From sequence record MT782071.1: DNA of 64,000 nt; one strand, written 5' to 3'. Origin of the DNA: Escherichia phage JN02. Position 1 is the first letter of the stretch, and every line of letters begins with the position of its first letter. Shown piece after piece: positions 7,179-62,789 of the stretch. The notes beneath the pieces were generated by a model. It was not told where the DNA came from and searched no databases. It saw nothing but the letters and a program-made list of their open reading frames with translations. The translations under genes and the position numbers were made by a program.

Positions 7179-8597
7179 TTATGGATATGTATAGATGATA
7201 CCAGTTTCTAAAGCAGTTTTATGGATGACGTATCCATTACGTGATTCTTGAACATCAACTTCCGGATAGTCTTTCATCATCTTCTGAAGTGTGTAACGAT
7301 GCAAGTAGTACTTACTATCTGGATCTTCAGTTTTCCAATCTTTACCTTCTTCAGTCATTTTTTGGATTTCATCCATAACCCACCATCCGCACCAGATGTA
7401 AGCTGAAGTACGATGTGGAAGAGGATGAACATAAGGTAGTTCACCTTCTGGTTCTGGAGCAACTTTATCGGTTACCTGAACTTGACCTTCTGCTGTAATA
7501 GTTTTGCTATCGTAATCAGTTGCAGTAATAGTTGCAGTAACTTCAATAGTTTGACTTCCAATAGATGAGGTATCAACAGTATATACATTAGTTGACCCTT
7601 CTACAGGAGAAGAATCTTTCTTCCACGAGTAAGTAATTTGTGCTGCGTCAGGTGCGCCAGTAACATTAGCAGTAAATGTAGCCGAAGCATCTTGTTGAAC
7701 ATTAATAGAAGGAGGAGTCAATGTAATCTGTGGATTCATTGTCTTCTTATTAACCGTTAATGATACTTCATTCGAAGTAACTTCCTTTGCATCATAATCT
7801 GTCGCTGTTACTTGGGCTACACACTTAATTTTTTTAACTCCACTTGTAGTTGGAGTATAGCTAAATGTAGAGTTAGTTTCTCCACCAACCTGTGAATCAT
7901 CTACATACCACTGATACGTAGCAGACGCTCCAACCGGTTGAGAAGCTAAGGCAGCAGTAAATTGAACTTGGGTTCCAATTACTCCGGCCGAAGGACTATT
8001 GGGAGTTACTGCCAACGTAGTTGTCTGTGTCTTTTTATTAACAGTCAGTGACACTTCATTAGAAGTAACGCTTAGTGCATCATAATCTGCCGCAGTTACT
8101 TGAGCTACACACTTGATTTTTTTAACTCCGCTTGTAGAAGGAGTGTAATTGAATGTAGCGGAAGTTGCTTCGCCAACAGGAGAATCATCTACATACCATT
8201 GATAAGTAGCGTTTGCGCCTGATGGCTGCGAAGCTAAAGCGGCAGTAAATTGAACTTGGGTTCCAATTACTCCAGCGTCAGGGCTATTAGGAGTTACAGC
8301 TAAGGTAGTCGTTTGTGTCTTGTTTTGAACTGTGATAGTTGTAGAAGCTTCTGCTGTTTCAGCTTCAGCTTCCGGAACTGTATTTGTTGCAACTACTTTA
8401 ATAGTCTTTTGACCTGCAGGTCCTTTTAGTACATAACTAAAAGTTGCTTCAGCTCCATCTTGTGGAACATCATCTACAGTCCAAGCATATGTAATAGTTC
8501 CACCTCCAGTTTCACCACTGGGAGTAGCAGTAAACTGCTTAGTCTCATCTATAACTCCAGTAGGTGTTTTAGGAGTTATATCAACTGTAAAAGCCAT
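7179..8597 (-). CDS. hoc: highly immunogenic outer capsid protein Hoc, with an extra tandem Ig-like domain
   Basis: 472 aa; T/S/V-rich Ig-like repeats; two ~96-aa tandem copies; T4 position between 24.3 and inh. Confidence 0.85.
   Translation of the reverse strand: MAFTVDITPKTPTGVIDETKQFTATPSGETGGGTITYAWTVDDVPQDGAEATFSYVLKGPAGQKTIKVVATNTVPEAEAETAEASTTITVQNKTQTTTLAVTPNSPDAGVIGTQVQFTAALASQPSGANATYQWYVDDSPVGEATSATFNYTPSTSGVKKIKCVAQVTAADYDALSVTSNEVSLTVNKKTQTTTLAVTPNSPSAGVIGTQVQFTAALASQPVGASATYQWYVDDSQVGGETNSTFSYTPTTSGVKKIKCVAQVTATDYDAKEVTSNEVSLTVNKKTMNPQITLTPPSINVQQDASATFTANVTGAPDAAQITYSWKKDSSPVEGSTNVYTVDTSSIGSQTIEVTATITATDYDSKTITAEGQVQVTDKVAPEPEGELPYVHPLPHRTSAYIWCGWWVMDEIQKMTEEGKDWKTEDPDSKYYLHRYTLQKMMKDYPEVDVQESRNGYVIHKTALETGIIYTYP
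7740..8320 (-). repeat. tandem duplication of a 288-bp unit inside hoc
   Basis: two adjacent 288-bp units, roughly 85-90 percent identical by eye (landmark motif at 7955 and again at 8243). Confidence 0.8.
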
Positions 8598-27067: not shown

Positions 27068-27109
27068 TTTGTTCTCCAGGTGGTTTTATTGATTAGATGG
27101 TACAAGTCT

Positions 27110-27138
27110 ATAGTAACACATCCTACAGGAGAGTAAAC
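27110..27138 (-). promoter_or_regulatory. early promoter
   Basis: GTTTAC, 17 nt, TACTAT upstream of ORF 26699..27067. Confidence 0.6.
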
Positions 27139-27174
27139 ATCTTTTTAAACTTTTTCTGCCCTAAACGCACAAAA

Positions 27175-27192
27175 GGGAGACCGAAGTCTCCC
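27175..27192 (-). terminator. intrinsic terminator after the 59-aa basic ORF
   Basis: minus strand GGGAGAC-UUCG-GUCUCCC followed by UUUUG. Confidence 0.75.
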
Positions 27193-32758: not shown

Positions 32759-32786
32759 TTAGATTTCCTCAATTATCCATAGGAGC

Positions 32787-32816
32787 ATTATACTCTGCTC
32801 CCGAGAGTTTGTAAAC
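32787..32816 (-). promoter_or_regulatory. early promoter
   Basis: GTTTAC, 18 nt, TATAAT; flanking inverted repeat GGAGC/GCTCC. Confidence 0.6.
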
Positions 32817-33040
32817 TATTTTACTAAAGATTCAATATACTCATGAAGAGCTTTAGTAGCTACTGCCCACTTATTCTGATATTCATTTTTCAGATTAGCA
32901 CGAGACTGAACTAACAAGCGGTCATTAGTTGGAGGCAAAGATTCTAATCGTTGAATCTGGCGCCCATAAATCATAGCCGCCATTTCAGATTCATAGATAA
33001 GCCCTTTAATGTATTCATGCTGTTCTTTAGTCATTGGCAT
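32816..33040 (-). CDS. hypothetical protein
   Basis: 74 aa; SD AAGAGGAAAAATG. Confidence 0.55.
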   Translation of the reverse strand: MPMTKEQHEYIKGLIYESEMAAMIYGRQIQRLESLPPTNDRLLVQSRANLKNEYQNKWAVATKALHEYIESLVK

Positions 33041-42292: not shown

Positions 42293-42321
42293 TTTATTTT
42301 CCTCTCATTTGTTGATAAGTC

Positions 42322-42350
42322 TATAGTATCATGTTTAAAGGAAAAGTAAA
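42322..42350 (-). promoter_or_regulatory. early promoter
   Basis: GTTTAC, 17 nt, TACTAT, then CAACAAATGAGAGGAAAATAAA and ATG at 42292. Confidence 0.65.
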
Positions 42351-42382
42351 CAACTTTTTTGGCAATTTACAGATACTCAAAA

Positions 42383-42400
42383 GGGAGACCGAAGTCTCCC
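42383..42400 (-). terminator. intrinsic terminator after gene 32
   Basis: minus strand GGGAGAC-UUCG-GUCUCCC followed by UUUUG. Confidence 0.8.
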
Positions 42401-45691: not shown

Positions 45692-48600
45692 ATGGCCGAC
45701 ATCAAACGTAAGTTCAGAGCCGAAGACGGTCTGGACGCCGGTGGCGACAAGATTGTTAACGTAGCATTAGCCGACCGTACAGTAGGTACTGATGGCGTAA
45801 ACGTTGACTTCCTGGTACAAGAAAACACCGTTCAAGTATATGATTCTACGCGTGGATATAACAAAGGATTTGTTGTTCTTTATGACAACCGTTTATATCA
45901 AGCAATAAATGATATTGTGTCTCCTTCCGGGGCATTTAACCTTTTACAATGGCGCGCAGTTCGTACTGATGCACAATGGATAACTGTCGCTTCTGGGACT
46001 TATCAACTTTCTTCAGGTGAATCGATTTCGGTTAACACTGGTGCCGGCAATGATATGGTTTTCACGTTGCCAAATGCGCCGGTTGATGGTGATACTGTTG
46101 TTTTGGCTGATATTGGTGGAAGAACCGGTACAGTTAAAGTACAGATTAACGCGTCTGTGCAGAGTATTTTAAACTTTAGAGGTGAACAAGTTCGTACAGT
46201 TTTAATGACGCGCCCCCGTTCACAACTATTGTTTGTGTTTAGTAATCGTTTGTGGCAGATGTATATTACCGATTATGGTAAAGAATCAATCACTGTTACA
46301 CCTGCGACACCATATCAAGCACAAGCAAATGATTTTATCGTTCGTCGTTTTACTAGTGCAGCACCAATCAACATTACACTTCCACGTAATGCTAACAATG
46401 GTGATATAATCAGCCTAGTCGATTTAGATGGATTAAACCCACTGTATCATACAATTGTTAAAACATTTGATGATACAACGTCTATTGGCGAAGTCGGGAC
46501 TCATATTGCCGAAGGCAGAAATGACTCTGACGCGTTTTTTGTTTTTGATGCTGCAAGTAGTTTATGGCGTATATGGGAAGGCGACCAGAAATCACGTCTT
46601 CGTATTATCCGTGCGGATTCAAATATTCGTCCAAATGAAGAAGTTCTTATTTTTGGCACAAATAACGCTACAGCCGGAACTATTAATCTTACGCTGCCTT
46701 CCGGAATTTTGAGTGGTGACACTGTTAAAATTTCAATGAACTACATGCGTAAAGGCCAAACAGTAAAAATTAAAGCTGCCGAAGGTGATACAATTGCTTC
46801 TTCTGTTGCGTTGCTTCAGTTCCCTAAACGTTCTGAATATCCACCTGATGCTCAATGGGTCTCTGTTACTGAACTAGAATTCAATGGCACTACTTCATAT
46901 GTTCCTGTATTAGAATTAGCGTATATCGAAGACACCGTTGCTGGTACACGTTATTGGGTTGTGCAACAGAATGTCCCTACGGTAGAACGTGTTGATGCTG
47001 GATCCGATACAACTAGAGCTCGTGTAGGTGTTATTGCTCTTGCTACTCAAGCGCAAGCAAATGTTGATTTTGAAAATTCTCCAGCTAAAGAAGTGGCTAT
47101 TACTCCTGAAACGTTGGCAAATCGTACAGCAACTGAAGCTCGACGTGGTATCGCTAAAATTGCTACAACAGCACAAGTTAACCAGAATTCCACAGCATCA
47201 TTTGTGGACGATACTATTGTTACGCCTAAAAAACTAAATGAGCGTACAGCAACTGAAACTCGTCGCGGTCTTGCTGAAATTGCTACTCAGACTGAAACCG
47301 ATGCTGGTCTTGATGACACAACGATTATTACACCTAAGAAATTGCAGGCACGTCAGGGCTCTGAAACGCTGTCTGGTATAGTTAAATATGTATCGACTAC
47401 TTCTGCTACTCCTGCTGAAACTCGTGGGGCTGCAGGCACTAACGTTTATAATAAAACCGTAAATAATTTAACTATTTCTCCTAAAGCCCTTGACCAATAT
47501 AAAGCAACTTATGCTCAACAAGGTGCAGTAATTTTAGCTGTTGATAGTGAAGTAATTGCTGGTCAATCACAAGCAGGTTATTCTCACGCTGTAGTAACTC
47601 CTGAAACACTACATAAGAAAACTTCTACTGATGGACGTATTGGTTTAATTGAAATTGCTACGCAAGCAGAAACTAATGCTGGGACTGATTATACACGTGC
47701 AGTAACGCCTAAGACGTTAAATGATAGGAAAGCGACGGAAGGATTATCCGGCATAGCCGAAATTGCTACGCAAGTTGAATTTGATACTGGAACTGATGAT
47801 ACTCGTATCTCGACTCCACTTAAAATTAAAACTCATTTTGATTCTTCTGACCGTACCGGTGTTAATTCTGATTCCGGACTTATTGAAGAAGGAACCTTGT
47901 GGAACCATTATACTCTTGATATTTCTAAAGCAAATGAAACACAACGTGGTACACTTCGCGTAGCGACCCAGGCAGAATCTAATGCAGGAACTTTAGATGA
48001 TGTTCTTATTACTCCTAAAAAGCTTTTAGGGACTAAGTCCACTGAAACGTCTGAAGGCGTAATTAAGGTTGCTACTCAGGCTGAAACTGTAACAGGAACT
48101 TCTGCTAATACTGCTGTATCTCCTAAGAATTTAAAATGGATTGTGCAGAGTGAACCAACATGGGCTGCTACTACAGCAATTCGTGGATTCGTTAAAACTT
48201 CATCCGGTTCTATTACATTCGTTGGTAATGATACAGTCGGTTCTACACAGAACTTAGAGCTATACGAGAAAAATAGCTATGCAGTATCACCATATGAATT
48301 AAACCGTGTATTAGCAAATTATTTGCCATTAAAAGCAAAAGCTGCTGACGCAAATTTATTGGATGGTCTAGATTCATCTCAGTTCATTCGTAGGGACATT
48401 GCACAGACGGTTAATGGTTCACTAACCTTAACCCAACAAACGAATCTGAGTGCCCCTCTTGTATCATCTAGTACTGCTACGTTTGGTGGTTCAGTTTCGG
48501 CAAATAGTACATTAACTATTTCTAATACTGGAACGGCAACTCGTCTGATTTTTGAGAAAGGACCTCAAACTGGAACTAACCCAGCACAGTCAATGAGCAT

Positions 48601-57770: not shown

Positions 57771-58111
57771 TTAAACCATTCCTTAATACGTTGCCAAATA
57801 GATTTTTGTGCTTGTTTATTTACACCAATCGAACGAATAACCGGTTGTGACTGCTGATATTCTTTATAATCTTCTTTATAGATTTCGTAAGCTGCATCAA
57901 CAAATGAACTGATCGCTGCCATGTAGTTTTTACGAAGGCCACCAGGAGCTACTCCATTAGGGAATTCAGAATTTTCGCGAATAATTAAATATAACCCAGC
58001 TTTAACTTTAACGATAGTTCCAAGATAAGCCCCGTGGTACCAAATATCCCATCCTTCCTGAGTAGGTTCTGCACATTTACGAAGTTCGTTAATAATATTC
58101 AGCTTATTCAT
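57767..58111 (-). CDS. hypothetical protein (arn.x position)
   Basis: 114 aa, ATG start. Confidence 0.55.
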
Positions 58112-58121
58112 TATGTATTCC

Positions 58122-58754
58122 TCACAGTACGTTAGTTACAAGGGTAATGATTTCTTTGGACACATTAGGGAAGTCGATGTAGGTATATTTACCACCGATC
58201 TTAATCTTAACATCATTTTCAAGAGAAGTAAACAGCTTTGATTCAGTTTCTGTCATGTTGTATGCAAAGATTCTAAGAGCGCCATCTCGACGAATTTCGA
58301 TCTGACGAATACCTAGAACTCGTTTTGCAAATCGAACTTCCAAGTTACTACGGTTTTCACCAATTTCTTTAACTTCAACTTTATCTTTAATATTTTCAAA
58401 AACAAAGTTTGCTAGTTCATGCATTTCAGGAGTAACTCCACGTGCTTTTCTGGTGTTACGTTTCTGAAGAAGTTCCGGAGCATTTTCTTGAGCAAATAGG
58501 TCTGCAGCTTTTTGGATAATATCCATTGCTTCACCTGTTGCTATAAGTCCATCACCAGATTTTTCGACTAAACCTTTCTTAATCAATACACCAATGTTAG
58601 AGTTAACAACCGATGCATTGTATTCCGCTTCCAGAGCTTCACGGACATTGGCAGCAGTGGTGAAGTTGTTCTTAATGATATAAACCATTATTGCAGCAGT
58701 TTTTTCATTCAGAGCGTTTTCAGAAGCTTTGATGATGTAAGTAACTTTAGACAT
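58122..58754 (-). CDS. motA: MotA middle-transcription activator
   Basis: 210 aa; N-terminal domain matches T4 MotA. Confidence 0.85.
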   Translation of the reverse strand: MSKVTYIIKASENALNEKTAAIMVYIIKNNFTTAANVREALEAEYNASVVNSNIGVLIKKGLVEKSGDGLIATGEAMDIIQKAADLFAQENAPELLQKRNTRKARGVTPEMHELANFVFENIKDKVEVKEIGENRSNLEVRFAKRVLGIRQIEIRRDGALRIFAYNMTETESKLFTSLENDVKIKIGGKYTYIDFPNVSKEIITLVTNVL

Positions 58755-58820
58755 TTTATTTCTCCAAATTAGTATTTGTTTTGATAGGTCTATAATATCA
58801 TGTTTGAAGCAAAAGTAAAC
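58747..58820 (-). repeat. promoter-leader direct repeat, copy A (motA)
   Basis: about 75 bp nearly identical to 59066-59141, covering -35, -10, RBS and the ATG-TCT-AAA start. Confidence 0.75.
58792..58820 (-). promoter_or_regulatory. early promoter (motA)
   Basis: GTTTAC, 17 nt, TATTAT; part of direct repeat copy A. Confidence 0.65.
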
Positions 58821-58857
58821 TTTATTTTGGGCTCTTTTTCAAAAGCCCTGGTAAAAT

Positions 58858-59073
58858 TTACAAACTCATTTCTTTAATAAGGCTAATAAGTTTTGCCTTT
58901 TTAGAACGAAGCTTTTCTAAATGATGTCCATTTGAACCGCGAACCACTAAAGAATTGATTTCAACTTCTAAGAAATTTAATTCTTCAACAAGTGCTTTAC
59001 GTGGAGCATTCATACCAGGTTTAACTTTACCGAAACGAGTAGTTGTGTTTTGGGTTAATTTCATTTTAGACAT
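58858..59073 (-). CDS. small basic protein
   Basis: 71 aa, K/R-rich; promoter, SD and first codons duplicated from motA. Confidence 0.5.
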   Translation of the reverse strand: MSKMKLTQNTTTRFGKVKPGMNAPRKALVEELNFLEVEINSLVVRGSNGHHLEKLRSKKAKLISLIKEMSL

Positions 59074-59141
59074 TTTATTTCTCCAATTTGGTTGTTTTGT
59101 TTTGATAGGTCTATACTATCATGTTTGAAGCAAAAGTAAAC
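59066..59141 (-). repeat. promoter-leader direct repeat, copy B (71-aa ORF)
   Basis: near-identical to copy A. Confidence 0.75.
59113..59141 (-). promoter_or_regulatory. early promoter (71-aa basic ORF)
   Basis: GTTTAC, 17 nt, TAGTAT; part of direct repeat copy B. Confidence 0.65.
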
Positions 59142-59167
59142 TGTTTTGTGAGAAAAAATGCACAAAA

Positions 59168-59183
59168 GGGAGCCGAAGCTCCC
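59168..59183 (-). terminator. intrinsic terminator after gene 52
   Basis: minus strand GGGAGC-UUCG-GCUCCC followed by a U-rich tract. Confidence 0.75.
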
Positions 59184-59259
59184 TAATCATGTTTGTCCAA
59201 CCAATACAGCCAAATCACTAGTGCAGCTATTGCACCGAGAAATCCTAAGGCCAGGGCAC

Positions 59260-60585
59260 TCAAAGTGCCTCCAAGTCTTTAGTGTACTCGGTCACAACAT
59301 CAGTAGACTTCCAATACTCATTTTCTTCTTTCTTAGCTTTAGCTTCTTCTGCCAGTTTGCGTGCTTCGTCGGAAGTGATATGGAAGATGTTAAGACCTAC
59401 CAGTTTATCGACATGTTCTTTATACATTTCGATTTGTGCTAGCTCTTCAGTCAAAGCTTTACGAGTCTTGCCCTGAATCACGATTTCACCTGTAATAACT
59501 TTTTTGATGAAGTGTGCCTTAGCAAAAGCAAGTTTAAATGCTTTTTCAGATTCAAGGATTTTGTTGTCAATACGTTTCTGAACGTAAGTCTTACGGACTT
59601 CAACAAAATCTTTGATTAAGTCTACTACATTATCATAGACTGCTAATTTACCCTTTTCATTAATCACTGTGATGTTTTGTGAACGACGTTCGATGAGACT
59701 AAAATCTTTCATGATTTTTTCATGACGTAGCTCTTCATCATCAGGAAGCGAGTACTCTTTACGGAACTTCACTTTAAACCCAAAGCCGTGTTCACCACAA
59801 TCATCTTCCCATGAGATTAGACCTTTGTCTTCCAACGGGTCAAGAACCTTACTCACATACGTTTCACGGTCGAATTTATACGGGATTTCAGTTATCTGCA
59901 TTTGAGTGCGAGATGTGAACTTATATGTTCCGTGAATCTCATAACGCCCATCAACTTCATGTACTTCACCACGGAATTCCGGGAATTCAACTTTTGGCTT
60001 AGTGACATTTTTACCTTGAAGAGCTTGTAATACAGCCTTTTTGACCGATTTAAAACTATGAGGCAGAATATTTGTTGCGTAACCGGTTGCAATACCAGAT
60101 ACGCCGTTCAAAAGAACTGTCGGAATAATAGGAAGATAGAATTTTGGTGGAATGTGTTCTTTATCTTCATGAGCTGGAGCATATTCAGTATCTTTATATA
60201 CGTTATAGAAATTTTTACTCACACGAGCAAAAATATAACGAGATGCTGCAGCTTTTTGGACTGTTCGAGAACCAAAGTTGCCTTGGCCATCTAACAGTGG
60301 ATAGTTGTTGTTCCATGTGTTAGCCATCAATGCACCTGCATCTTGTGCAGAAGATTCACCATGGTGATAACCTAAATCTGCAACACCACCTGCAATTGAC
60401 GCAAGTTTATGAAATTTTTCTTTATTACCACGAGCCAAATCTAATGCACGATGAACCACAAAACGTTGAACCGGCTTAAATCCATCGATCATGTTTGGGA
60501 TTGCACGGTTTTCAACGGTGTACATCGCATATGCTAAGGCTTCGTTATCAATAATACTTTTTAGATTACGAGAATTCAATTGCAT
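59260..60585 (-). CDS. 52: DNA topoisomerase II medium subunit gp52
   Basis: 441 aa; T4 size and position. Confidence 0.93.
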   Translation of the reverse strand: MQLNSRNLKSIIDNEALAYAMYTVENRAIPNMIDGFKPVQRFVVHRALDLARGNKEKFHKLASIAGGVADLGYHHGESSAQDAGALMANTWNNNYPLLDGQGNFGSRTVQKAAASRYIFARVSKNFYNVYKDTEYAPAHEDKEHIPPKFYLPIIPTVLLNGVSGIATGYATNILPHSFKSVKKAVLQALQGKNVTKPKVEFPEFRGEVHEVDGRYEIHGTYKFTSRTQMQITEIPYKFDRETYVSKVLDPLEDKGLISWEDDCGEHGFGFKVKFRKEYSLPDDEELRHEKIMKDFSLIERRSQNITVINEKGKLAVYDNVVDLIKDFVEVRKTYVQKRIDNKILESEKAFKLAFAKAHFIKKVITGEIVIQGKTRKALTEELAQIEMYKEHVDKLVGLNIFHITSDEARKLAEEAKAKKEENEYWKSTDVVTEYTKDLEAL

Positions 60586-61375: not shown

Positions 61376-61419
61376 GCTAATTTCCTCAATTGATTAATGT
61401 TTTTGTAATCCATGAGAGC

Positions 61420-61449
61420 ATTATACTCTGCTCTCAAGAGTTTGTACAA
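61420..61449 (-). promoter_or_regulatory. early promoter (ndd), variant -35
   Basis: TTGTAC-type -35, TATAAT -10; flanking inverted repeat GAGAGC/GCTCTC. Confidence 0.5.
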
Positions 61450-61451
61450 TT

Positions 61452-61652
61452 TTATTCGGCTATATCAGAACGTTCAAAAAGCTCTTCAACAGTTAAACAT
61501 TCGGTGTCATCCTCAATAAAGAATCGAGTCCAACACGTTGGGGCGATACAGTTATGAGTTTGTCCGGCGATAGAAGCTACACGAATAAGCTGCTGACCAT
61601 TATTCAGAACAAATTTTTCACCAATTTCAACATCTTTAAAAAGCTTAGCCAT
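61452..61652 (-). CDS. hypothetical protein (ndd.x position)
   Basis: 66 aa; early promoter and SD upstream. Confidence 0.5.
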   Translation of the reverse strand: MAKLFKDVEIGEKFVLNNGQQLIRVASIAGQTHNCIAPTCWTRFFIEDDTECLTVEELFERSDIAE

Positions 61653-61680
61653 TTTGTGTTCCTCGTGTTTCAGTAGGACT

Positions 61681-61710
61681 ACTATACCATAATCCTACCT
61701 TGATGTAAAC
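61681..61710 (-). promoter_or_regulatory. early promoter with inverted repeat around the -10
   Basis: GTTTAC, 18 nt, TATAGT; inverted repeat GTAGGA/TCCTAC. Confidence 0.6.
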
Positions 61711-61899
61711 AGTTAAATTACATTAAAATATGTTAAAGCCAACCATGTTCCAGTGAACGAACATGCGATGTAAAAACCCGTATCACAAATTGTTCTTAGT
61801 ACAATAAGTGCATTTTTCATAAGTACCTCAACACAATTGAAAATATTATACAAATCATTGGGATACTAAGCAACCATATTCCGATCCACATTTTAGAGC

Positions 61900-62163: not shown

Positions 62164-62189
62164 GATGTTATCCTCTTTTAGATAGGACT

Positions 62190-62219
62190 ACTATATCATA
62201 ATCCTACTTAGTTGTAAAC
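62190..62219 (-). promoter_or_regulatory. early promoter with inverted repeat around the -10
   Basis: GTTTAC, 18 nt, TATAGT; inverted repeat TAGGA/TCCTA. Confidence 0.6.
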
Positions 62220-62231
62220 ACTTTTATGAAA

Positions 62232-62789
62232 TTAAAGATGAAGATACCACCCATTGTAGTTGCTCTTGCGGACGATTTTCTTTAGGTCTTCATGGTCTCC
62301 CACGAACTTTATAGAATAAGAGAAGACGTCAGGTGAGGTTTCTTTGACATCTAATATAATAATGCAATCTGCGACTCGATGGTTCAAGAAGGGCCCTATA
62401 TTGATTCCATTACCGCCCGGATAATCACCACCGTATCCTGTGGTAACCGAAATCCATTTCGAATCCATCTGATGGGTCTTTACTTCTACGCGTAGACCAC
62501 AGTACTTAGGATGAGCTAAAACGTCCCATGCATACGTGTACGGGTCTTCTACGTCTTCAATACCTTTATTAACATATCCGTCTAGCCAATTTGCTACTAC
62601 ATACTCTGCAAAGACCGCAACCTTACAACGTCGAACTACGTCTTCTTTTATTTGACCTGGATCTTGTTTCAAGGAGTACCGAGCAGTGTCAGCAATCTTC
62701 ACCTTCATTTCACTAGTCAAAAACTCATTCGACAGGATAAATGTCGGAAGATTCTTCAGTCTCAACAGTCCCAAGTTCGTCTTTACCAT
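62232..62789 (-). CDS. denB: endonuclease IV candidate, assigned by size and position
   Basis: 185 aa from internal ATG (T4 DenB is 185 aa); start uncertain. Confidence 0.5.
   Translation of the reverse strand: MVKTNLGLLRLKNLPTFILSNEFLTSEMKVKIADTARYSLKQDPGQIKEDVVRRCKVAVFAEYVVANWLDGYVNKGIEDVEDPYTYAWDVLAHPKYCGLRVEVKTHQMDSKWISVTTGYGGDYPGGNGINIGPFLNHRVADCIIILDVKETSPDVFSYSIKFVGDHEDLKKIVRKSNYNGWYLHL

Follow-up and report, generated by a model that had tools for sequence, protein, structure and literature searches.

Direct repeats of an early-type promoter, leader and start codons flank an optional gene beside motA in Mosigvirus phages: a probable PeSL-type cassette

Why should motA, the gene of an essential core regulator of a T4-like phage, share its promoter, its leader and its first three codons with an unrelated gene just upstream? 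In T4, MotA is an early product, and the motA mRNA is cut by RegB within its GGAG ribosome site (PMC2988021, PMC1702504). In phage JN02 (the window, here, is the whole stretch of 64,000 nucleotides that was analysed), motA is preceded by an open reading frame for a 71-aa basic protein (ORF71; pI 10.35), and both products start with MSK. A first-pass annotation had seen near-identical copies of a segment of about 75 bp at the two genes, each with an early-type promoter, a leader and ATG-TCT-AAA, and had proposed that an expression cassette was recently duplicated onto a different coding sequence, giving the small protein the early timing of MotA. The two copies, their contents and the basic nature of the protein are borne out below; the recency of the event and its role as the source of early timing are not.

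The repeat pair and its regulatory anatomy

The source phage belongs to the genus Mosigvirus (RB69/JS09 group), and positions 58000-59400 of the window are 97-99% identical to many Mosigvirus genomes. All genes around the repeats, namely gp52, ORF71 and motA, lie on the minus strand (Table 1). A conserved neighbor, gp52, lies upstream of ORF71 and motA. The sole family match of ORF71 is to phrog_6200 (PHROG 6200), a PHROG without an assigned function; searches of Pfam and NCBIfam gave no match and a search of the PDB gave no significant one. The protein uL23 was considered as a relative and rejected, as the PDB sequence search returned it at an E value of ~0.5 only. A single-sequence AlphaFold model (pLDDT 80) predicts a disordered basic N-terminus and a helical hairpin, a predicted fold that appears too generic for a fold search. 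When compared with its homologue in JS98, ORF71 has a dN/dS of 0.21, a dS of ~1.1 and a DNA identity of 72%; thus, it is a real gene that is under purifying selection and has long diverged.

Table 1. Features of the gp52-motA locus and of a related unit, with positions in the window
Feature	Position	Strand	Basis or remarks
gp52, DNA topoisomerase II medium subunit	59260-60585	-	ORF; Pfam DNA_topoisoIV, E = 8e-78; gp52 annotation in relatives
Stem-loop upstream of copy U, GGGAGCUUCGGCUCCC then UUUUGUGCAUUUUUU	59168-59183	-	7-bp GC stem, UUCG loop; terminator-like
T/A-rich stretch, hairpin to -35 box, at UP-element position	59142-59167	-	Sequence reading; conserved in relatives
Repeat copy U, 77 nt, upstream of ORF71	59065-59141	-	BLAST, pattern matches and alignment
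Copy U, promoter parts	-35 GTTTAC 59136-59141; TG 59120-59121; -10 TAGTAT 59113-59118	-	
Copy U, 3' parts (leader, GGAG, ATG, then TCT AAA)	GGAG 59081-59084; ATG 59071-59073	-	
ORF71, 71-aa basic protein	58858-59073	-	ORF; phrog_6200, E = 3e-40
Stem-loop upstream of copy D, GGGCUUUUGAAAAAGAGCCC	58829-58848	-	8-bp stem, GAAA loop; no U-run after
Repeat copy D, 75 nt, upstream of motA	58746-58820	-	BLAST, pattern matches and alignment
Copy D, promoter parts	-35 GTTTAC 58815-58820; TG 58799-58800; -10 TATTAT 58792-58797	-	
Copy D, 3' parts (leader, GGAG, ATG, then TCT AAA)	GGAG 58762-58765; ATG 58752-58754	-	
motA, middle-transcription activator	58122-58754	-	Pfam MotA_activ (1e-39) and MotCF (2e-8); tblastn to annotated motA genes
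Third, partial member: hairpin GGGAGACTTCGGTCTCCC and promoter core	42312-42400	-	Core of 40 nt, 90%; other leader, ribosome site and gene

From the -35 box to codon 3, the copy upstream of ORF71 (U) and the copy upstream of motA (D) are the same at 71 of 77 positions (92%), an identity that spans the -35 box, the TGn/-10 element, the leader, the GGAG ribosome site and ATG-TCT-AAA. The six differences are one base of the -10 box (TAGTAT vs TATTAT) and a patch in the leader that includes a 2-nt indel. The copies agree completely over their first 25 nt, which form the promoter core GTTTACTTTTGCTTCAAACATGATA, and over the 22 nt at their 3' end, TTGGAGAAATAAAATGTCTAAA; the non-consensus spacer TTTTGCTTCAAACATGA and codons 2 and 3 are likewise identical; TTGGAGAAATAAAATGTCTAAA has exactly two occurrences in the window, and for either sequence zero matches are expected from shuffled sequence. 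BLAST of one copy against the window aligns 58746-58821 with 59065-59142 (78 columns, 92.3%, E = 2e-24), and in a comparison of the window with itself the match grows to 86 nt (89.5%); only one other internal repeat of the 64 kb is stronger. The repeat period from U to D is 319-321 bp.

To set a background, the 14 early-promoter candidates of the window were compared pairwise from the -35 box to ATG+9. The mean identity was 63% (sd 7%), and the best pair other than U and D reached 77%. Thus, the 92% of the U/D pair lies far beyond what a generic early-promoter consensus accounts for. The first-pass annotation had named an identity confined to that consensus as the result that would contradict it, and the pairwise alignment gives the opposite.

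Each copy is part of a larger unit, in which a hairpin is followed by an A/T-rich stretch, GTTTAC, the TG of an extended -10 element, the -10 box, the leader, GGAG and ATG. The promoters read GTTTACT-N16/17-TATTAT in D and end in TAGTAT in U, with TG at the extended -10 position in each; the leader of ~40 nt is unstructured (fold z about 0), and the gap from GGAG to ATG is 7 nt in both. Both hairpins are significantly more stable than shuffled sequences. The U-side hairpin, 25 nt from its -35 box, folds at -17.2 kcal/mol (z = -3.3), coincides with a terminator scan match at 59167-59184 and is conserved in every Mosigvirus locus read, its loop showing the compensatory variants TTCG and CGAA. 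The D-side hairpin, 8 nt from its -35 box, folds at -12.3 kcal/mol (z = -3.05), and its position and type (AGAGCTCTTGAAAAAGAGCTC) recur before motA in Dhakavirus and in the phages BGP, Manna and KK4. A scan of 58600-59350 against Rfam yielded nothing relevant. Judged by the consensus and by the example of T4 motA, both promoters would be active with early-type timing, and folding and consensus suggest that the hairpins may terminate transcription. The D-side hairpin lacks a U-tract, however, and thus may not do so, in which case motA could be transcribed from both promoters.

This order of parts is that of the promoter-early stem-loop, or PeSL, an approximately 100-bp composite (Arbiol 2010, PMC2839356; Comeau 2014, PMC4122927) that joins a stem-loop and an A/T-rich region with a sigma-70 early promoter and ends in the Shine-Dalgarno sequence and start codon belonging to the downstream gene (PMC2839356, PMC4122927). 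In T4 and PST, PeSLs take the form TTTACW-N17-TAYWAT with the stem-loop just upstream (PMC2839356, PMC4122927), a consensus that the U and D promoters match except at one base, the G in the TAGTAT of U. A GC tetraloop hairpin stands directly upstream of four of the 14 early-promoter candidates (at 59140, 58819, 42350 and 27137). One of these belongs to the partial third member in Table 1, where the 25-nt core recurs with 2 mismatches (42327-42351); a further unit with the same type of hairpin lies near 27104-27192, and similarities among such units show up when the window is compared with itself. A 77-nt query finds two to four matches per Mosigvirus genome.

A middle-promoter reading was also tried. 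The MotA box, (a/t)(a/t)(a/t)TGCTTtA, lies 12 +/- 1 bp upstream of a -10 element TAnnnT (PMC2988021). The MotA-box-like TTTTGCTTCA in the spacer ends 7 bp before the -10 box, no alternative TAnnnT is found 11-13 bp from it, and the window has 57 occurrences of the heptamer; the reading was therefore rejected.

Presence, absence and chimeric alleles among relatives

MotA with at least 95% identity is found in 153 phage records, and homologues of ORF71 are found in 93, with at least 95% identity in 75 of these and 88% in one more. About half of the Mosigvirus records carry ORF71 together with two copies of the repeat, and the rest carry one, which settles the copy number in relatives that the first-pass annotation had left to be checked. 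ORF71 is an optional gene just upstream of motA and the cargo of the cassette. A single cassette directly precedes motA in RB69, moskry, G2469, mobillu, F2, JK45 and JM10, as well as in O157 typing phage 13 and two IMG/VR contigs. Where it was reported (RB69, moskry, G2469 and mobillu), the matched span is shorter by 318-320 bp; over the same interval, RB69 is 320 bp and moskry 318 bp shorter, and both are without ORF71. This shortening equals the repeat period. Both states are present within a single species, Mosigvirus mar005p1, in which WFbE185 has ORF71 and G2469 and moskry do not.

The single-copy alleles are U/D chimeras of two kinds. In RB69, the upstream flank and a U-like ATAT spacer are joined to a D-type leader, and this single copy has 2-3 differences from D copies and 6-9 from U copies. 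In nine other genomes without ORF71, a U-type leader is fused to motA, and each of these single copies comes within 0-3 positions of one or another U copy; that of G2469 matches the U copy of Shf125875 at every position. Furthermore, the U-spacer haplotypes TTTT, ACGT and ATGT are each found both with and without ORF71. All combinations of these two markers, which lie no more than 70 bp apart, occur, and this requires either crossovers inside the cassette or recurrent indels. The similarity of the flanks does not follow the presence or absence of ORF71: JS09, which has the gene, and mobillu, which lacks it, differ at just 2 of 300 and 3 of 250 flanking nucleotides. Ordinary crossovers in gp52 and motA, instead of recurring excision, could in part have spread the patchy distribution of ORF71. 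Nine of the 10 sampled single-copy alleles are of one kind, the U-type, and an ancestral U-type single copy followed by insertion of ORF71 fits the data as well as repeated deletion does.

Taken together, these observations make it probable that U and D are the flanking, PeSL-type regulatory cassettes of an optional gene module. Direct repeats of ~77 nt, 90-92% identical and ~320 bp apart, can be paired by general homologous recombination. A crossover between them would pop ORF71 out and leave one chimeric cassette, which would still drive motA; a cargo gene would come in when this event runs backwards, or by exchange with a relative that infects the same cell. Because the 3' end of the repeat is the initiation region of motA itself, crossovers up to codon 3 would be in frame and harmless. 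The pathway is presumably general recombination, and mini-circles may serve as intermediates here. The first-pass idea of an expression cassette on a different coding sequence holds insofar as the two genes are unrelated, carry the same signals and share a 3' part that comes from motA; what it missed is that the copies flank an optional, apparently PeSL-type gene that only about half of the close relatives have.

Other genera have the same slot. In Dhakavirus (JS98, VR5, C6 and Bp7), the order is gp52, hairpin, promoter, ORF71, hairpin, promoter and motA, with protein identities to the window of 70% for MotA and about 75% for ORF71. In JS98 the two copies agree throughout their 41-nt promoter core, and so do those of VR5; each pair also shares the variant of its lineage (TTCT in JS98, TTAT in VR5), which indicates homogenisation between copies. 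The leaders and ribosome sites differ in Dhakavirus, and ORF71 starts there with ATG-AAT-AAG (MNK), the start ATGAATAAG sitting behind the ribosome site GGAGACACAAAA. Two Tequatrovirus phages, BGP and Manna, are T4-like through gp52, motA.1 and motA, yet their ORF71 has 95% DNA identity to that of JS98 and starts with the same MNK codons. On its left the foreign segment starts at AAAATG in the initiation region of the resident motA, and on its right it stops within the spacer of the promoter now in front of motA (GTTTACTTCTGCTTTAA). This is an independent transfer of a cassette with a Dhakavirus-type ORF71, with both junctions inside the regulatory unit. In Tequatrovirus KK4, the slot holds another cargo, a 75-aa protein of phrog_10955 between 23-nt leader repeats, and T4 has one copy only, a hairpin and a promoter followed by motA.

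Direction and age of the copy, and competing explanations

MotA starts with MSK in T4, Dhakavirus and Mosigvirus, whereas ORF71 outside Mosigvirus starts with MNK. In codons 2 and 3, all three nucleotide changes between ORF71 of Mosigvirus and that of Dhakavirus are toward the motA sequence. Since MSK is native to motA and MNK is the state of ORF71 in the outgroup, the ribosome site and codons 1-3 were copied from motA to ORF71. In addition, the motA initiation region, TTGGAGAAATAAAATGTCTAAAGTTACT, is found in lineages with other upstream genes. An exact-match scan of IMG/VR with the 22-nt region returned seven contigs, a small sample: two unrelated chance occurrences, two Mosigvirus loci with a single copy and three loci with the motA of other lineages. 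In the last three, TTGGAGAAATAAAATGTCTAAA-GTTACT heads motA, and the upstream genes are unrelated to ORF71. The region (ribosome site, spacer and ATG-TCT-AAA) would thus have been moved onto ORF71 by exchange or gene conversion. The route may have been a crossover at a 3-nt microhomology or gene conversion, or codons 1-3 may already have been on ORF71 in an unsampled donor.

The two-copy arrangement is old within the genus rather than recent in JN02. All six of the two-copy Mosigvirus genomes read have the shared ribosome site and MSK start. These include the divergent ECCR664, in which ORF71 is 87% identical in nucleotides and the neighboring genes are 13-15% diverged. All six also keep the leader patch by which U and D differ, and thus the two copies have long coexisted. 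The -35-proximal spacer reads TTTT in both copies of the window; in other two-copy genomes the upstream copy has ACGT or ATGT instead, and this one identity may be more recent.

Several other explanations have to be weighed. In the first, the cassette is an active element rather than a passive substrate: an arriving cargo takes the promoter, leader and initiation region of motA, and motA receives the promoter of the cassette. In that case ORF71, as a selfish or MotA-linked early gene, would be co-expressed and shut off with motA and would perhaps modulate the early-to-middle switch. This is considered unlikely. If read in this way, the cargo is joined on behind codon 3 in Mosigvirus and at the ATG in BGP and Manna; the two genes would have the same RegB-sensitive site, and TGCTTCA in the spacer might act as a MotA-box-like operator.

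A recent tandem duplication in JN02, which would have placed the promoter, ribosome site and start of motA onto a pre-existing reading frame, is the explanation closest to the first-pass claim. The 92% identity of the copies and the complete identity of their last 22 nt, three codons included, would be expected from it, and the TTTT spacer, which both copies have only here, suggests a local and more recent homogenisation. However, the same two-copy structure and initiation region are present in six of six Mosigvirus loci with ORF71, ECCR664 among them, the U/D leader patch speaks for long coexistence, and the two-promoter layout is shared with Dhakavirus, from which ORF71 is separated by a dS of about 1.1. 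A recent event is accordingly judged to be distinctly unlikely. Nor is copying needed to explain early timing, as homologues of ORF71 have an early-type promoter of their own everywhere.

It could also be argued that selection for co-regulation keeps the 3' ends identical, through a common RegB/S1 site, translation efficiency or a possible MotA-box-like operator, with ORF71 working together with MotA. Strong RegB sites follow GGAGRAYARAA (PMC3014915), and the T4 motA mRNA is cleaved in its GGAG, as noted above; GGAGAAATAAA, present in both copies, fits five of the seven downstream positions of the motif, and the leader around it is unstructured. Thus, a common RegB shut-off of the ORF71 and motA mRNAs is plausible. 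Furthermore, the 22-nt region is unchanged in the six two-copy Mosigvirus loci despite the divergence of its neighbors in ECCR664, and in the loci of relatives TGCTT(C/T)A is invariant in the promoter spacer, in contrast to the variable 4 nt that precede it. An 11-nt RegB motif, however, requires neither identical codons 2 and 3 nor an identical promoter spacer, ORF71 uses other ribosome sites in Dhakavirus and Tequatrovirus, the gene is absent from about half of the Mosigvirus genomes, and the MotA-box-like heptamer is both common in the window and misplaced for a MotA box. As the explanation of the repeat, co-regulation is therefore regarded as very improbable; it complements the flanking-cassette explanation and does not replace it.

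Finally, convergence on a strong extended early-promoter consensus and an optimal ribosome site, with no shared history, is scarcely credible, for although T4 early promoters have consensus positions beyond the UP, -35, TGn and -10 elements (PMC2988021) and many promoters of the window share TACTATAGACnTATCAAC and GGAG-N-AAAATG, the U/D identity far exceeds the background (92% vs at most 77%), the identity extends to the non-consensus spacer and to codons 2 and 3, the three changes in ORF71 are all toward motA, and the length that single-copy relatives lack is exactly one repeat period.

Comparison with known systems

The arrangement at motA of T4 itself is alike in having a terminator hairpin and an early promoter upstream, a GGAG ribosome site and an MSK start; it differs in that there is one copy, with another spacer and leader, and motA.1 instead of ORF71. 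The early promoter and RegB-cleaved ribosome site of T4 motA go back to Uzan et al. 1990, as presented in reviews (PMC2988021, PMC3014915). A second parallel is the internal-protein (IP) locus of the T-even phages, for which shuffling via conserved regulatory sequences was described by Repoila et al. 1994, as cited in PMC4122927. There, too, alternative small genes occupy one slot bounded by conserved promoter and leader sequence, and the 77-nt query also matches the ip8 region of RB15. However, the IP locus is a different one, and, going by that citation, the 1994 work did not define a mechanism. By analogy only, the locus also recalls integron cassettes, in which promoter-dependent cargo moves as a unit, possibly circular, into a fixed slot; unlike those, the system here has no integrase and no attC or attI, would use homologous recombination, and has a promoter in each cassette.

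The closest relatives are the PeSLs. In the published cases, an ORF between two PeSLs in one phage corresponds to a single chimeric PeSL in a close relative, circular excision products of PeSL-flanked genes have been demonstrated, and the exchange is ascribed to the general recombination of T4, for which patches of <50 bp are enough (PMC2839356, PMC4122927). The U/D pair shares the composite itself, the intergenic setting beside small genes of unknown function, and the tandem copies around an ORF that close relatives lack, one chimeric copy being left in them. It differs in that the downstream gene is an essential core regulator, where elsewhere it is another ORFan, that the D-side hairpin lacks a U-tract, and that circles are known for the published PeSLs whereas the case here is built on sequence. 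Only one detail is out of the ordinary: the repeat, which here precedes an essential regulator, reaches three codons into both genes. Neither motA nor the gp52-motA locus (Mosigvirus, Dhakavirus, some Tequatrovirus) is mentioned in PMC2839356 or PMC4122927.

No new mechanism is revealed, and the finding, at a locus adjoining the essential regulator motA, is real and of a known kind. At the sequence level, all of the features that define a PeSL are present at the gp52-motA locus, and the U/D pair would be a new, well-documented case of this already described class. Genetic instability of the 71-aa gene is to be expected from the direct repeats 320 bp apart, and phages with and without this gene may express motA differently, from two versus one tandem early promoters. 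The evidence is unusually complete, with both alleles in one species, two junction classes, an inter-genus transfer and an alternative cargo, and the locus offers a clean natural example of how T4-like phages swap accessory genes without a dedicated recombinase.

A MotA-box-like motif in the cassette promoters

In both copies of the 77-nt cassette, the one preceding ORF71 (the optional gene for a 71-aa basic protein) and the one preceding motA, the promoter spacer contains the MotA-box-like motif TTTTGCTTCA. The motif is invariant between lineages, with the form TGCTTTA in Dhakavirus, while the 4 nt immediately preceding it are variable (TTTT, ACGT, ATGT, ATAT, TTCT, or TTAT). Its distance from the -10 element is 7 bp rather than the 12 +/- 1 bp of a canonical middle promoter, and a reading of these sites as canonical middle promoters is therefore ruled out. 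TTTTGCTTCA might be a MotA operator on the promoter of motA itself.

Features of the window and of relatives
Feature	Coordinates	Strand	Details
MotA-box-like TTTTGCTTCA	59125-59134, 58804-58813	-	within both promoter spacers
KK4 75-aa gene (phrog_10955)	L007 1016-1243		ORF71 slot, between motA.1 and motA
Bp7 motA, two CDS	L024 922-1413 (922-1131; from 1131 onwards)
Intergenic promoter or hairpin pair 1	61408-61454, 32775-32823		81-86% over 44-54 nt (range for pairs 1-3)
Intergenic pair 2	62183-62236, 61674-61727
Intergenic pair 3	47243-47286, 47123-47166
Intergenic pair 4	27104-27192, 42317-42400		72% over 90 nt
Strongest internal repeat	7740-8045, 8028-8333	-	~305 nt, 80%; within-window comparison
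26-codon unlisted ORF, (TTG)SALALGFLGAIAALVIWLYWLDKHD	59183-59263	-	hydrophobic product

The ORF71 slot in relatives

In Escherichia phage KK4, the slot is occupied by a different gene, which has the repeated leader CTATCAAATAAATGAACTGAAAC on both sides. ECCR664 has a homologue of ORF71 (dN/dS = 0.72 against the window gene) with a divergent C-terminus and a stop three codons early, after KLRSKRQNLLALLKK; its record carries no annotation in the 1.4-kb stretch read, the ORF71 locus included. The split annotation of motA in the Bp7 record is due to a frameshift or else to an error in sequencing.

Other repeated units

The window's strongest internal repeat is an ordinary domain duplication within one gene, a 472-aa ORF (7179-8597) with repeated Ig-like segments that is apparently the Hoc outer-capsid protein. 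The further intergenic pairs, exemplified by GTTTACAAACTCTCGGGAGCAGAGTATAATGCTC with its stem-loop placed between -35 and -10, are likely to represent other subfamilies of PeSL (the promoter-early stem-loop cassette of T4-like phages) and other sites of shuffling. At 84% over 51 nt, the 77-nt cassette also matches the RB15 ip8 internal-protein locus (Z35082.1), the classic T-even site at which small genes were first reported to replace one another by shuffling.

A small ORF downstream of gp52

The start of the 26-codon ORF overlaps the gp52 stop codon, and its stop reaches into the terminator hairpin upstream of the ORF71 cassette. Its product is hydrophobic, and it is probably a gene for a small membrane peptide. 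At the equivalent position, T4 has motA.1, and the Dhakavirus relative C6 has an annotated 34-aa ORF.
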